Source of the DNA: an uncultured delta proteobacterium
Lineage (GTDB): Bacteria; Myxococcota; Myxococcia; Myxococcales; Myxococcaceae
Direction of reading: 5' to 3'
Assembly (NCBI GenBank): GCA_963776345.1
Contig: CAVZMH010000001.1
Coordinates: 32,001 to 96,000 of the forward strand
DNA length: 64,000 nucleotides
Both the position numbers and the translations under genes were made by a program. Shown piece by piece: positions 19,445-24,304 of the stretch. Each line of letters opens with the position of its first letter. Positions within the stretch are counted from its first letter, which is position 1. The notes under the pieces were generated by a model, which worked only from the letters and a program-made list of their open reading frames with translations, did not search any database and was not told where the DNA came from.

Positions 19445-22400
19445 ATGGCTCGAGAGGCCCTACCAGGAGAGGTGTATCGACCAGCGTCCCCGGGCGGACG
19501 CACGGCGAGCGCCACGCCTGACGACGGGGTCGGGGGGCCGGTCCCGAGGCTGCCGCGCGGGGCGACCCTGGGCCGGTACGTCGTCCTGGACTGCCTGGGC
19601 AGCGGGGGGATGGGGGTCGTCTACCGGGCCCACGACTTCGCGCTCGACCGGCGCGTCTCCCTGAAGCTGCTCCGCTCCTCGGGGAAGGACCCGGAGGCCC
19701 GGCGCGAGCGCCTGGTGACCGAGGCCCAGGCGCTGGCCCGGGTGTCCCATCCGAACGTCCTGGCGGTGCACGACGTCGGCACCTGGGAGGACGAGGTCTA
19801 CCTCGCCCTGGAGCACGTGGAGGGCGAGACGCTCCTGAGCTGGCTCGACCGCGCGCCGCGGACGCCGGCCGAGATCCGCGGGATGTTCCTCCAGGCCGCG
19901 CGCGGGCTGCAGGCGATCCACGATGCGGGGCTGGTGCACCGGGACGTGAAGCCCGAGAACCTGCTCGTCGGGCGCGACGGGCGGCTCCGGGTGGCGGACC
20001 TCGGGCTGGCCATCACCGCGGGGAGCGGCGGATCGGCGCCGGCCCGCGAGACGCTGCGGCCCGGGACGCCCGGCTACATGCCGCTGGAGCAGCACCGGGG
20101 CGAGGCGCTCGACGCGCGCGCCGACCAGTTCAGCCTCGCGGTGGCGCTCTACGAGGCGCTGCTGGGCCACCGTCCGTACGGGAGCCGCGGAGCCTCGCGC
20201 GAGGCGCTCGAGGAGCGGCTGGCGCGCGGACCCGGAGTCGACGTGCCGCGGTCGGGCGCCGTCCCCCCGCGGTTGCACCGGGCCCTCACCGCGTCTCTGA
20301 GCCCGGACCGCGACCGGCGCCCGGCCTCCCTCGCTCCGCTGATCGACGCGCTCACCTCCCCCGGTCTGCCGGCGCCCCGCAGCCTCGGAGGCTACGTCGC
20401 CGTCGGCGCCTCGCTGGCCGTCCTCCTGCTCGCCATGGCGCGCGGAAACGCGGCGCCTCTGGCCTCCGCCGAGGCGGCGCCCTGGCTCCCGCCCGCGTAC
20501 GAGTTCCAGGCCGAGGGGGTGGAGCCCGCGGCCCCGGCGGTCCTCGGCGCGGCGCTCCCGCCCGCCGCGCCCGGAGCGACGCTCCGCGAGGCGGCGTCCT
20601 CCGTCCGCAGCGGCCCGGCGTCCGCCTCCGCCCCGTCGCTCGCCCCACCGACCTCGGCCGCGGTGGTCCGGCCCGAGACGCTGGTCATCGGCCGGCGCGC
20701 GCCGTCCGCCGAGGTCTCCCCGTCGCCGCCCCGCGCTCCGGGCCTCGACCTGGACCGTCTCGCCGAGCTGCGCAGCCTGGTCCAGGCGCTCTACCGCGCG
20801 CTGACCGAGCCCCGGGAGGGCAGCGCCCAGGGGCCGCTCCTCGCGCTCTCGCCCGTGCCGGGCATGTCCTCGCCGAGCGGGGTCCCGTCGACCCCGGCCC
20901 CGGTCCAGCTGGCGTCGGCCGGGCTGAGCGGTGGCTCGGGGCCGGACTGGGTGGACCCGACGGGGCAGAGCATCGCGGCGATGGAGCGCCGGCTGGACCA
21001 GCAGATCCGCCAGAACCGGAGCCCGCCGGAGATTGCCCAGACGCGCTTCGCGCTCGCGCAGGCCATCTGGGACTCGAGCGACGCGGTCGACGCGCAGAAC
21101 CGCGCCCTGACTCTCGCCCGCGAGAGCAAGGCGGCGCTCGACGCGGTGACCAACGACGACTCGAGCGTGGTCGAGCTGCGCCAGGCGGTGAACGACTGGA
21201 TCTCGACGCGCGAGGGGCCGGTGGGCAAGCCCGGGGGCCCGCGTCTGACCTTCCAGCACGCCCAGCTCAAGCTGGAGTCGTGGACTCCCGTCGCTGACGT
21301 GTCTCGCCCCAACGCCACGAGGTCCGAGACCGATGGACGGCCGTCGTCCCGGCCCGCCCGGTCCAGCCAGCTGGTGGCCGCGCTCTCCTGCGACCGGCCG
21401 CTCGAGCCGCCGCGCGCGGTCGACCTGACGGGAGCCTCCGAGGTCTGGCTCGGCCGGTCGCCGCCCGAGGCTCCTCCCGGCGTCGTCCGGCTCAGCTTCG
21501 CGGACGAGCGGATGTCGGCGCTCCATGCGCGGCTGCGGCGGGTGCTCGGGCGCTGGGTGGTGGAGGACGCCGGCAGCAAGAACGGTCTGCGCGTGCAGGG
21601 GACCCCGCAGCGGCGGGCGGTGCTCGAGCCCGGCGACTCGATCGAGTGCGGGCAGACGTTCCTGGTCTTCGAGGAGCACCCGCGCGGGGACGACCCGCCG
21701 CCCTCGCTCCCCCCGGGCGCCGCGGAGCTCGGGTGCCAGAGCTTCCATCCGGAGCTCCTCGCCGCCTGGTCGGCGCTGGCCCGGGTGGCGCCCACCCGCG
21801 TGCCGGTGATGCTCGAGGGCGAGACCGGCACCGGGAAGGAGCTGGCCGCGCGGGCGCTGCACGTCTGGTCCGGCCGGTCCGGCCCCTTCGTGGCGGTGAA
21901 CTGCGGCGCGCTGCCCGAGCACCTGGCGGAGAGCGAGCTGTTCGGCGTCCGTCGGGGCGCCTTCACCGGGGCGGTCGAGGACCGGCCGGGGCTGGTCCGT
22001 GCCTCGAGCGGCGGGACGCTGCTCCTCGACGAGGTGGGGGAGCTTCCCGCCGCGCTGCAAGTGAAGCTCCTCCGCGTCCTTCAAGAAAACGAGGTGCAGC
22101 CGGTGGGCGCGGCGCAGCCGGTCCGCGTCGACCTGCGCGTCGTCACCGCCACGCACCGCGACCTCTCCGCGCTGGTGGAGGAGGGGACCTTCCGGAGCGA
22201 CCTCTTCGCGCGCCTCACCGGGCTCTTGGTGGAGCTGCCGCCGCTGCGGGACCGCCGCGCCGACCTCGGGCTGCTGGTGCCGGCGCTGCTCCGGCGGGCC
22301 GGCGCGCCGCCGGCGGTCCGCATCTCCCGCGAGGCAGCGCGGGCGCTCTTCCGCTGGAGCTGGCCGCACAACGTCCGCGAGCTGGAGAAGGCCCTGGCGC

Positions 22401-22678
22401 TCGGGGTGGCGCTCGCCGGCGACGGGCGCATCGAGCTCGCGCACCTGCCGGAGGTCTTGCGCACCGCCCCCGAGCCCCGGCCGGACGCGATGGCCAGCCG
22501 CGGCGACCGTCCGCTGAGCGACGCCGACGTGACGCGCCGGACCGAGCTCATCGAGCTGCTCCGGGCGCACCACGGGAACGTCAGCGCGGTGGCGCGCCAG
22601 ATGGGCGTGGCGCGGATGCAGATCCAGCGGTGGTGCCGGCGGTTCCACCTGGACCCGGCGAGCTTCCGCGCCGCCTAG
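19445..22678 (+). CDS. Single ORF joining a membrane Ser/Thr kinase (to ~21250-21280) and an FHA-sigma54 enhancer-binding protein (from GTG 21299); may be two genes
   Basis: Kinase motifs LGSGGMGVVY, HRDVKPEN, DLG, GTPGYMPLE; TM YVAVGASLAVLLLAMA; FHA motifs GR, MSALHA, DAGSKNG; AAA+ motifs GETGTGKE, ESELFG, GAFTGA, LLDEVGE, WPHNVRELE; HTH GNVSAVARQMGV. Confidence 0.85.
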   Translation: MAREALPGEVYRPASPGGRTASATPDDGVGGPVPRLPRGATLGRYVVLDCLGSGGMGVVYRAHDFALDRRVSLKLLRSSGKDPEARRERLVTEAQALARVSHPNVLAVHDVGTWEDEVYLALEHVEGETLLSWLDRAPRTPAEIRGMFLQAARGLQAIHDAGLVHRDVKPENLLVGRDGRLRVADLGLAITAGSGGSAPARETLRPGTPGYMPLEQHRGEALDARADQFSLAVALYEALLGHRPYGSRGASREALEERLARGPGVDVPRSGAVPPRLHRALTASLSPDRDRRPASLAPLIDALTSPGLPAPRSLGGYVAVGASLAVLLLAMARGNAAPLASAEAAPWLPPAYEFQAEGVEPAAPAVLGAALPPAAPGATLREAASSVRSGPASASAPSLAPPTSAAVVRPETLVIGRRAPSAEVSPSPPRAPGLDLDRLAELRSLVQALYRALTEPREGSAQGPLLALSPVPGMSSPSGVPSTPAPVQLASAGLSGGSGPDWVDPTGQSIAAMERRLDQQIRQNRSPPEIAQTRFALAQAIWDSSDAVDAQNRALTLARESKAALDAVTNDDSSVVELRQAVNDWISTREGPVGKPGGPRLTFQHAQLKLESWTPVADVSRPNATRSETDGRPSSRPARSSQLVAALSCDRPLEPPRAVDLTGASEVWLGRSPPEAPPGVVRLSFADERMSALHARLRRVLGRWVVEDAGSKNGLRVQGTPQRRAVLEPGDSIECGQTFLVFEEHPRGDDPPPSLPPGAAELGCQSFHPELLAAWSALARVAPTRVPVMLEGETGTGKELAARALHVWSGRSGPFVAVNCGALPEHLAESELFGVRRGAFTGAVEDRPGLVRASSGGTLLLDEVGELPAALQVKLLRVLQENEVQPVGAAQPVRVDLRVVTATHRDLSALVEEGTFRSDLFARLTGLLVELPPLRDRRADLGLLVPALLRRAGAPPAVRISREAARALFRWSWPHNVRELEKALALGVALAGDGRIELAHLPEVLRTAPEPRPDAMASRGDRPLSDADVTRRTELIELLRAHHGNVSAVARQMGVARMQIQRWCRRFHLDPASFRAA

Positions 22679-22697
22679 CGAGGAGCCGGGGGCGCGG

Positions 22698-22750
22698 GGT
22701 GCAACACCCCGAGGTGCAACACCCCCCGGGGGTGCAACGTGTTGCACCCC
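22698..22750. repeat. Array of GGTGCAAC half-sites (candidate enhancer for the adjacent activator)
   Basis: GGTGCAACACCCC direct repeats at 22698 and 22713; perfect inverted repeat GGGGTGCAAC-GT-GTTGCACCCC at 22729-22750. Confidence 0.8.
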
Positions 22751-22793
22751 GTCCGCTGGTACCGATGTCCCAGGCGATTTGCCGCCCACGGCC

Positions 22794-22809
22794 CGGCACG
22801 CCGACTGCA
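22794..22809 (+). promoter_or_regulatory. Sigma54 (-24/-12) promoter
   Basis: CGGCACGCCGACTGCA: GG at 22795-96, exactly 10 nt, GC at 22807-08. Compare consensus TGGCACG-N4-TTGCA. Confidence 0.72.
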
Positions 22810-22819
22810 CAGGCAGGGG

Positions 22820-22903
22820 AGCGACGTCGAGGCGGCCCGCCGTCCTGGGGCCACGGGGCGCCGTGGGTTCACTCTCCCCTCCCCACGGCGCCTCGTTTTT
22901 TTT
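22820..22903 (+). ncRNA. Candidate sigma54-dependent small RNA (~84 nt), Pxr-like organisation
   Basis: Lies between the sigma54 promoter and an intrinsic terminator, contains no usable ORF, and has a C/U-rich terminator loop. Confidence 0.55.
22853..22903 (+). terminator. Intrinsic terminator with 14-nt C/U-rich loop
   Basis: 15-bp stem ACGGGGCGCCGTGGG / CCCACGGCGCCTCGT (one G-U pair), loop TTCACTCTCCCCTC, run of 8 T at 22896-22903. Confidence 0.9.
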
Positions 22904-22904
22904 G

Positions 22905-23711
22905 TCAGTAGCTGTCGCTGGAACCGCCGCCGCCGCCCTCGCCACCGCCGCCGCCGGAGAAGCCGCTCCCACCGTCTCCGCCTCCGCCGAAGCCGCCACC
23001 TCCGCCTCCCCAGCCGCCGCCGTCTCCCCCACCGCCCCAGCCGCCCCCGATGAACGGCGGGCCGCCCCAGTAGGTGCGGCGACGCGGGTGCCGGCTCGCG
23101 CGAAGGAGGAGCATCAGGACGACGAAGAGGATGAAGCCCCAGAAGCAGAGGTCGAACCAGTGGGGCAGCACGACCGGGGGCTGCTGCCAGTCGGGCGGGC
23201 GCTGGCCGGCAGGACGGCGCGTGGTGCCCGAGCCCGAGAGCGCCTCGGTGATCCCGTCCACCCCCGCCAGGATCGCGTCGTGGACCCGCTCCTGTCGCAT
23301 CAGCGGGGCGATGCGCCGCCGGATGATGTCGTTCGACTGGAGGTCGGTGAGGTCTCCCCCCACGCCCTTGCCGGTCTCGATGCGGATGCGGCGCTCGCCG
23401 GTCGCGATGACCAGGACCACGCCGTTGTCCTTGCCCTTCTGTCCCGGGCGCCAGGTCTGGATGAGCTGGTACCCGACGTCCTCGATGGGCTCCCCCTCCA
23501 GCGAGGGAGTCACCAGGACGAAGATCTGCTTGGTGGTGCGGCGCTCGTAGTCACCGAGCCGGTTGTTGAGGTCCGTCAGCTCCGCCTGGCTGAGCAGGCC
23601 CGCGGTGTCGGTGACGTAGTCGGTCTGCTTCGGGACGTTGAAGGCCCGGGCGGAACCGGCGACGAGGAGGAGCAGGGTCGCGCAGAGCGGGCCCCAGGCC
23701 CGCGCCCGCAT
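22905..23711 (-). CDS. TPM domain protein (YgcG-like) with Gly-rich tail
   Basis: Signal peptide; VTDTAGLLS, KGKDNGVVLVIA, RIETGKG; TM; GGGGEGGGGGSSDSY tail; overlaps the lemA stop. Confidence 0.9.
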   Translation of the reverse strand: MRARAWGPLCATLLLLVAGSARAFNVPKQTDYVTDTAGLLSQAELTDLNNRLGDYERRTTKQIFVLVTPSLEGEPIEDVGYQLIQTWRPGQKGKDNGVVLVIATGERRIRIETGKGVGGDLTDLQSNDIIRRRIAPLMRQERVHDAILAGVDGITEALSGSGTTRRPAGQRPPDWQQPPVVLPHWFDLCFWGFILFVVLMLLLRASRHPRRRTYWGGPPFIGGGWGGGGDGGGWGGGGGGFGGGGDGGSGFSGGGGGEGGGGGSSDSY

Positions 23712-24304
23712 CAGAAGGTCACCTTGGGCGCCTGCGTGGCGTCCGCGGAGGCCTGGAAGTACACCCGCGGCTTGAACGTGCCGCCCGTGACGCGCTTCAC
23801 CACTGCTCCGCGGATCTTCCCGAGCTCGGTGTTGTAGTCCCGCACGGCGTCGTTGTACTGCTCGCGCGAGCGGAGGATCCGGTTCTCGGTGCCCTCGAGC
23901 TGGACCTGCAGGTCGTGGAACTGGGCATTGGCCTTCAGATCCGGGTAGGCCTCGTTCACCAAGAGGAGCCGTGAGAGCGCGCCCTTCAGCTGGTCCTGGG
24001 CCTTCTGGAAGGCGGCGACCTTCTCCGGATCCTGAAGGTCCTCGGCGCTGAGCGTGATGCCGGTCGCCCGGGCGCGCGCCTCCGCGACGTCGGTCAGCGT
24101 CTTCTCCTCGTGCTGGGCCGAGGCTTTCACCGTGGCCACCAGGTTGGGCACGAGGTCCGAGCGGCGCTGCAGCTGGGCCTGATAGTCCGCCCACTTCGCG
24201 TCGCAGACCTGATCCTTGGCGATCAGCTGGTCGTACTGGTTGCAGCCGGCCAGGGCGAACAGTCCCACGGCGGCCACGAGGGAGATGGGGGCGCGGGTCG
24301 TCAT
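23711..24304 (-). CDS. lemA: LemA family protein
   Basis: QRRSDLVPNLVATVK, YPDLKAN, LEGTENRI, YNDAVRDYN. Confidence 0.95.
   Translation of the reverse strand: MTTRAPISLVAAVGLFALAGCNQYDQLIAKDQVCDAKWADYQAQLQRRSDLVPNLVATVKASAQHEEKTLTDVAEARARATGITLSAEDLQDPEKVAAFQKAQDQLKGALSRLLLVNEAYPDLKANAQFHDLQVQLEGTENRILRSREQYNDAVRDYNTELGKIRGAVVKRVTGGTFKPRVYFQASADATQAPKVTF

Follow-up and report, generated by a model that had tools for sequence, protein, structure and literature searches.

To our knowledge, only few small RNAs (sRNAs) of myxobacteria have been characterised, Pxr above all, and myxobacteria do without Hfq. In this study, we analysed a window of 64,000 bp from an uncultured delta proteobacterium of the Myxococcaceae (assembly GCA_963776345.1, contig CAVZMH010000001.1, positions 32,001 to 96,000 of the forward strand), in which a locus at 19445-22903 carries genes for a Ser/Thr kinase and an FHA-domain sigma-54 activator, followed by a predicted enhancer, a predicted sigma-54 promoter, and a predicted sRNA of about 84 nt. 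Based on sequence comparison, the sRNA family appears to be both real and new, and the locus a newly wired variant of a known design. On balance, the evidence leans towards a chain in which the kinase would act via the FHA activator and sigma-54 on an anti-Shine-Dalgarno sRNA repressing translation at ribosome-binding sites.

The layout of an activator gene followed by a sigma-54-dependent sRNA is already known from nla19-pxr and cbrB-crcZ, and it is less unusual than the initial annotation of this DNA had implied, since cbrB-crcZ displays the same arrangement. Pxr of Myxococcus xanthus sits behind nla19 with a sigma-54 promoter (PMC5568312), the loop of its first stem-loop (SL1) is essential and its host is without Hfq (PMC5684412), and Pxr as well as the RNA MXnc1 bind near the Shine-Dalgarno (SD) sequences of several mRNAs in Hfq-less M. 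xanthus, as seen by TRIC-seq (bioRxiv 10.1101/2025.09.11.675593). The locus studied here resembles Pxr in that the sRNA lies directly downstream of a sigma-54 activator gene and has its own predicted sigma-54 promoter, in its C-rich loop (functional in Pxr), and in its Hfq-less background, with Hfq (PF17209) not found in the 98%-complete genome. In contrast, Pxr has three stem-loops with a GGUUCCCCCCC-type loop in SL1, whereas here two hairpins are predicted within about 84 nt and a C/U-rich loop of other sequence is located in the terminator. In addition, the activator carries an FHA domain instead of a receiver and has a Ser/Thr kinase as its partner. The RNA itself is not Pxr. RF01812 gave no match in the window at the gathering score or at E values up to 10, but the genome has one Pxr match at C21:14849-14958, and a Pxr was detected in 23 of 24 genomes of the family, while our model R2 matched none of 12 Pxr loci. 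The comparison with Pxr drawn in the initial annotation thus holds as an analogy of layout and not for the RNA. As a side observation, the Pxr homologue of this genus (also L031, L134, and L155-L159) has, unlike in other genera, no neighbouring sigma-54 activator and no -24/-12 box, and a sigma-70-like TTGTCA-N17-TATCTG promoter is conserved in 6/6 aligned genomes.

In Pseudomonas, CbrAB is a two-component histidine kinase system, and CrcZ is several times longer than the RNA predicted here. In PMC5113210, crcZ is described to follow cbrB and to be made from an RpoN promoter as well as by processing of the activator transcript, and CrcZ to antagonise the Hfq/Crc proteins. While the CbrA-CbrB-CrcZ system and the locus in the window share an activator gene immediately followed by a (here predicted) RpoN-dependent sRNA, the present RNA is short and has an anti-SD-like loop, and the Hfq partner was not found in the genome (Crc was not searched). 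With Pxr, MXnc1, and also RsaI and RNAIII of Staphylococcus aureus, it shares an exposed pyrimidine-rich loop suited to SD pairing, with no match at the level of sequence families and with predicted targets on the side of the present RNA.

Regarding the activator, the architecture FHA-AAA+-HTH is that of the FHA-domain sigma-54 enhancer-binding proteins of M. xanthus, which Jelsbak, Givskov and Kaiser reportedly described in 2005 together with a proposed link to Ser/Thr kinases. FHA domains recognise phosphothreonine, as stated in PMC6213207 and PMC2875238. While we found no sRNA output reported for the M. xanthus proteins, the only four-site enhancer of the present genome serves a unit without an open reading frame (ORF). 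Neither this RNA nor a Ser/Thr kinase and FHA activator driving an sRNA was found in the portions of the literature searched, though an M. xanthus non-coding RNA survey (cited in PMC7694542) and the MXnc1 supplements could hold a distant relative.

Predicted enhancer, promoter and RNA

The predicted enhancer (22698-22746, not assigned to a strand) begins 19 bases past the activator stop and consists of three GGTGCAAC repeats starting at 22698, 22713, and 22731, the third of which runs into a palindrome TGCAAC-N-TGTTGCA (22733-22746). Among 10 sequences of the genus, the repeats are invariant and the spacers variable. Overall, the genome of 5.1 Mb harbors 702 TGCAAC half-sites and 15 clusters with at least two of them, but only this enhancer represents a cluster of four sites. 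Downstream follows the predicted sigma-54 promoter (22795-22809, forward strand) with its -24 GG at 22795-6, its -12 GC at 22807-8, and a predicted start near 22820; boxes of this type occur at a frequency of 0.0099 per kb in the genome. GGCA-N7-TGCA was present in 39/39 loci of type A, i.e., those with enhancer and box, the distance from palindrome to box amounted to 48-50 bp in all 35 of them in which the palindrome was found, and the distance from box to hairpin to 47-50 across the 39. The GGTGCAAC repeats and the GG-N10-GC promoter claimed in the initial annotation were both found, and the locus has the -24/-12 box and, at a conserved spacing upstream of it, the enhancer that are expected of a sigma-54-dependent trans-acting sRNA. 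Between enhancer and promoter, we also noticed a genus-conserved GCTGGT..TGTCCCAG block (22751-22792), which may be the site of a DNA-bending protein.

The predicted RNA (22820-22903, forward strand) consists of an invariant CGAGGCGGCC block, a weak first hairpin, a terminal hairpin, and a U tail. The terminal hairpin (22853-22896, forward strand) has a stem of 15 bp and an open, C/U-rich loop of 14 nt (22868-22881), is followed by T8 at 22896-22903, and folds with a z of -4.25. Its loop, which is predicted to be unpaired and is complementary to SD-like words, is the longest among 128 intergenic hairpin-plus-U candidates of the genome, and a terminator scan overlooked the hairpin because it permits loops of at most 8 nt. 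No match to the predicted RNA was obtained in Rfam. A small peptide encoded by the 84-nt unit was considered and rejected, as the sole start codon common to 30 aligned sequences sits within the terminal stem. The stretch of about 84 nt without ORF and the strong terminator noted before are therefore seen as a non-coding unit with an intrinsic terminator and, as outlined below, a sequence under selection. A real RNA is very probably made from this promoter by this activator.

Kinase and activator genes

The Hanks-type Ser/Thr kinase gene (19445-21297, forward strand) starts with the ATG at 19445 and revealed a match to Pfam Pkinase with an E value of 2.6e-38. In strains with the extra base described below, it encodes about 617 aa up to its natural stop TGA at 21295-21297. 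The deduced protein is composed of the kinase domain, a predicted transmembrane helix, a Pro/Ala-rich linker, and a conserved helical C-terminal domain for which no Pfam match was found. Based on the motifs GSGGMG, VSLK, HRDVKPEN, DLG, and GTPGYMPLE, all retained in aligned relatives, it possesses the Gly loop, catalytic Lys, HRDxKPxN, D-x-G, and substrate loop of Hanks-type kinases, with DLG replacing DFG and PLE replacing APE. The single transmembrane helix (20393-20437, forward strand), the topology being a prediction, reached a hydropathy of 2.06 over its best 19 residues, and a hydrophobic stretch at its position is retained in genus relatives.

One base past the kinase stop, a GTG opens the gene for the FHA-AAA+-HTH sigma-54 enhancer-binding protein (21299-22678, forward strand; 459 aa), which matched FHA (1.9e-08), Sigma54_activat (4.2e-59), AAA_lid_14, and HTH in Pfam. 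It displays GAFTGA at 21956-21973 as well as the Walker A/B and R-finger motifs, i.e., the features of an FHA-type sigma-54 enhancer-binding protein. The FHA domain aligns to GarA/OdhI with retention of the S-x-x-H and N-G residues, which we take to be the phosphothreonine-binding residues of these proteins. A single-sequence AlphaFold model of the activator was uninformative (pLDDT 35). Gene calls were obtained with a simple self-trained finder (4298 genes), its starts being approximate. Altogether, the kinase with a membrane helix and the FHA-AAA+-HTH activator with an intact GAFTGA, both read from the bare sequence in the initial annotation, were recovered here.

In the deposited sequence, kinase and activator form one ORF of 1077 aa that was absent from the initial annotation, with a single open frame and a coding-type GC content at third codon positions throughout. 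This single ORF arises because one base is missing behind 21280 (site at 21280-21281, forward strand; this assembly only): an A is found at this point in five of five near-identical runs covering the site (X1, X3, X4, X6, and X8), while X10 does not cover it. Kinase and activator are two genes in 11/11 genus loci, where TGA-C-GTG is invariant and its TGA ends the kinase in eight, an earlier stop doing so in three, and a stop was revealed at every one of the 13 readable junctions among 14 inspected in metagenomes. Furthermore, in a fused protein the activator would sit behind a membrane helix, and two further long genes of this assembly, the TonB-receptor genes at C14:81128 and C22:228524, look frameshifted, suggesting more single-base assembly errors. 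The fusion was therefore discarded as the result of a single-base loss seen in this assembly only, most likely an assembly error, and we attach next to no credence to a fused kinase-FHA-AAA+ protein that is real in this strain and its unusual feature, in spite of the continuous frame with its coding-type composition. A further C that 4 runs carry is missing at 22706.

Conservation, related loci and origin of the RNA

The cassette was detected in 11 of 12 genus relatives with 76-82% DNA identity, and the intergenic region was matched in 9 of 12 at E values of 1e-54 or better; of the other three, two have contigs ending in or just past the activator, and one genome is 68% complete. Compared with seven relatives, the terminal hairpin including its loop was identical in 300 of 301 bases, with identities of 0.90-0.95 for the RNA and 0.88-1.0 for the box, while lower values were obtained for the spacer of 13 nt between box and start (0.38-0.62), the four-fold sites of the kinase (0.58), and third codon positions (about 0.65). 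In five genus genomes with 3-5 aligned per locus, the control terminators of rpsA, rpoC, and pyc varied in loop or stem or were lost, whereas the Pxr homologue was near-invariant like this RNA; a fourth terminator chosen as control had a C-rich loop that proved conserved, and may represent an sRNA in its own right. The conservation in relatives on which the initial annotation had made its proposal depend is thus seen, since repeats, palindrome, box, and RNA are kept at fixed spacing, whereas drift is seen in the spacers and in the 13 nt that follow the box.

A pattern scan of metagenomes resulted in 49 loci. Of these, 29 were of type A (25 distinct) and 16 were stand-alone paralogues; two lay behind a protein gene, one followed a sigma-factor-like gene, and one was cut off. 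The loop was identical in 28 of the 29 type A loci, whose sequences are close kin and not independent, and near-identical DNA was present in soil and peat runs. Altogether, the loop sequence is under selection. Strong matches to models R1 and R2 were confined to this genus and the genomes G136 and G223, with 151 family and 151 order genomes searched. Weak matches outside the genus and G136 (E 1e-4 to 1e-8) were mostly terminators or other C-rich hairpins and were excluded from the family, and the 28 pattern matches across GTDB came mainly from the genus itself, from G136-like and sigma-gene copies, or by chance from other phyla.

A survey of related activators returned 19 loci from other genera, of which one from an unpublished genome was excluded and 18 were read. 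In ten of these, the activator is followed by the same TGCAAC array, a GGCA-N7-TGC box, and a start codon belonging to a gene for a small secreted protein or a TonB-dependent receptor; the remaining ones carried variant arrays (2/18) or none (6/18). Since ten of the other-genus activators share both elements with a start codon behind them, array and box are probably the enhancer and promoter of this activator subfamily, and the output slot behind them seems to hold an RNA in this genus and envelope-protein genes in related loci. In addition, genome G115 (L247:4805-5075, activator orientation) harbors a related pair of kinase and FHA activator, behind which lie a TGTAAC/TGTCAC array, a sigma-54 box, and a stretch of about 110 nt with hairpins and a short U run, possibly a second, unrelated RNA output.

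The locus of G136, a member of a sister genus, shares the divergent upstream gene and is organised into kinase, activator, enhancer and box, TonB receptor, lipoprotein, and a 3' hairpin with a similar loop, followed by a second enhancer and box and an RNA of about 108 nt with the same loop core and compensatory changes in the stem. In G159, we found kinase, activator, receptor, and lipoprotein, but no match to the RNA. The term self-contained used in the initial annotation thus applies within this genus and not to the sister genus, where the activator also drives a TonB-dependent receptor operon.

Three genus genomes harbor a second copy of the RNA (type B) behind a different shared promoter element, which is palindromic (TGGCAG..TTTGTCACTCCTGCC..CGTA). 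In metagenomes, 16 type B loci (12 distinct) have no gene between promoter and hairpin, and some type B copies form the 3' untranslated region (UTR) of a gene for a secreted protein of 265 aa without Pfam match. Stand-alone copies are L065, L165, L169, L171, L174, L175, L178-L180, L186, L192, L196, L200, L202, L203, L206, and L212, and copies with the secreted-protein gene are L063, L064, L188, and L195. In L186, the promoter is directly followed by the last codons and the 3' UTR of this gene, and because a remnant of the deleted gene is retained there, we infer that the hairpin RNA arose as a 3' end which outlasted the deletion of the coding part. A plain terminator would not be retained in this manner. 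The RNA of the window likely derives from the 3' end of an envelope-protein operon formerly driven by the activator, the coding part of which was lost.

Further hairpins came up in these searches. In 10/11 genomes of genus g12 (L261, L262, L264, L270-L276), the best R2 match lies immediately behind a sigma-factor-like gene, presumably of the extracytoplasmic function (ECF) type, and is a terminator hairpin whose loop is of the CTCTCCCC type; this is a possible 3'-UTR sRNA. On C22 near 111364 (minus strand; L130, L150, L151, L154), the 3' UTR and terminator of a gene for a secreted protein of 448 aa retain C-rich stretches and the loop in 4 genomes, a candidate for another 3'-UTR sRNA.

Proposed mode of action, candidate targets and competing explanations

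In the favored chain, an envelope-side signal would lead to autophosphorylation of the kinase, the FHA domain would dock on a phosphothreonine of the kinase, and the activator bound to the repeats would open the sigma-54 promoter, after which the open C/U-rich loop of the RNA would pair with SD regions and repress translation. Since the enhancer hairpin has no U tail, part of the RNA may also arise, as with crcZ, by read-through of the kinase-activator message. It is fairly likely that the RNA acts by base-pairing to SD regions without Hfq. Support for pairing comes from G136, where loop and stem of the RNA contain 14 bases perfectly complementary to the ribosome-binding region of the TonB receptor; complementarity of this length was seen in 0 of 7691 control leaders of the present genome with the G136 RNA and in 2 of 7691 with the RNA of the window. 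In the HMG-CoA synthase leader, a 10-nt complementary word is present in 5/5 aligned leaders (one relative dropped) and coincides with the gene's own SD region, so that it is regarded as a candidate only.

A gene for a receiver/HD-GYP protein was followed up and rejected as a target. Its 11-15 nt match is shared by G136 and 11 of 12 genomes of the genus, yet it coincides with the -35 region of a sigma-70 promoter that occurs family-wide and appears to be leaderless. This gene (C15:186813-188006; orthologues L338-L369) occurs in 56 of 61 genomes, with a TAGAAT-type -10 box 7-10 nt before the GTG in many genera. When 13 genomes were scanned with a pattern for the long complement upstream of ATG, 15 matches were obtained in eight of them, with no gene in common, and of the three TonB-receptor paralogues in this genome, two had readable leaders, in which no obvious complement was seen by eye.

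The contigs of the RNA runs X20 and X24 were uninformative either way, as no listed piece falls on the predicted RNA and the bin depth comes from GC-repeat pieces further right. Several results weigh against the chain. No conserved mRNA target within the genus emerged from word counts, duplex scan, pattern scan, or candidate follow-ups, all of which were negative or ambiguous; the loop complement before start codons ranked 20th of 84 permutations, and a TRAP solute-binding gene with the best duplex (-36.0 kcal/mol) was rejected, as 2 of 12 shuffled seeds matched this value and the gene is present in 2 of 13 genomes. The G136 pairing is a single case noticed after the fact, with the unit in 1 of 8 genomes of that genus. 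The stem is near-invariant in the genus and hence reveals no covariation there. Across 21 hairpin variants, pairing was seen in 93.7% of cells, both sides have changed in 3 of 15 pairs, and the 6 double changes were reached in 0 of 500 shuffles, but part of the stem was preset by the search pattern, and it is G136 and the two sigma-gene copies that contribute the double changes. Finally, rpoN is missing from this assembly together with lptB and lptC, synteny with relatives breaking at the end of C21 (48178-51501) before rpoN; the gene is present in 5/5 relatives, and the gap also takes the lptB block at the contig end.

With regard to the input, the kinase stop and the activator start lie 1 base apart in most genus relatives, and a kinase gene is located directly upstream of the activator in 7/7 other-genus loci fetched at length, so that control of the activator by the adjacent kinase through its FHA domain is likely. 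As this genome encodes dozens of kinases, adjacency is no proof of such a pairing, which also speaks against the chain, and the kinase is of a different, longer type in four of the seven other-genus loci. Given the conserved order and spacing, we nevertheless consider it quite improbable that the RNA is driven by an activator whose FHA domain reads another kinase or which acts without phosphothreonine. An activator-driven RNA that binds a protein or sponges RNA in the manner of CrcZ, rather than covering ribosome-binding sites, is unlikely as well, but it deserves more weight, since the invariance of the whole terminal hairpin including its stem and of the 5' block suits protein recognition and no conserved mRNA target was obtained. 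On the other hand, its loop is predicted to be single-stranded and complementary to SD-like words, the G136 match falls exactly on the ribosome site, and no repeated protein-binding motifs were found in the 84 nt.

A more radical explanation would deny a functional RNA altogether, with the hairpin serving only to terminate the kinase-activator operon and with enhancer and promoter being remnants of a target operon since deleted. The protein genes that follow this promoter in sister genera and the similar hairpins that end protein-coding genes elsewhere would fit, but a leftover promoter would decay, whereas box, spacing, and repeats are kept while spacers drift. In addition, three ordinary terminators diverge in the same genus, loop and 5' block are invariant, and stand-alone paralogues persist behind a second promoter, which renders this explanation very improbable. 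Even less credible is an action in cis on the message of the convergent neighbours. As noted before, the next gene is convergent: it encodes a TPM-domain protein (22905-23711, reverse strand; Pfam TPM_phosphatase), ends at 22905 outside the unit, and is preceded upstream by lemA (23711-24304; Pfam LemA). Antisense 3'-end pairing or collision with this lemA-TPM message could be imagined, as 1-2 nt separate the end of the hairpin from the TPM stop codon in this genome and the TPM neighbour is usually kept. The distance between TPM stop and hairpin varies among relatives, however, with insertions of 10-70 nt in several of them, G136 and the paralogous hairpins share the loop next to other neighbours, and pairing in cis needs no fixed sequence.

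Going beyond the favored chain, one may tentatively imagine that a eukaryote-like membrane kinase, the FHA activator, and one Hfq-independent sRNA form a complete pathway with translational silencing as its only output, born by loss of the coding part of a TonB-receptor operon along a 3'-UTR route that was repeated in the stub paralogue, and that the G136 RNA represses the receptor message turned on by the same activator; we regard this wider picture as possible but doubtful. With this locus, a new RNA family would be added for which promoter, activator, binding site, and upstream kinase are all predicted. Though the hosts are uncultured, the locus offers a compact test case for the question of whether Ser/Thr kinases exert control over FHA-type sigma-54 activators, and in which way, and the TGCAAC array and box could be rebuilt as a reporter in a laboratory host. 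Moreover, the family seems to display intermediate stages in the birth of sRNAs from 3' UTRs, i.e., copies behind a gene, behind a gene stub, and standing alone.

Outside the family, two further groups of loci were noticed. In L265 and L266 (G205 and G204), i.e., two small genomes, a near-consensus sigma-54 box is conserved together with the roughly 110 bases without ORF behind it, which contain C-rich stretches and end in a hairpin with a U tail. No activator gene is adjacent, and the 5' end resembles that of the RNA in the window. In family f4, three genomes (L282, L285, and L287) carry a sigma-70-like promoter and an RNA without ORF that has a C-rich stretch and a pyrimidine-loop terminator, a candidate for another anti-SD sRNA.

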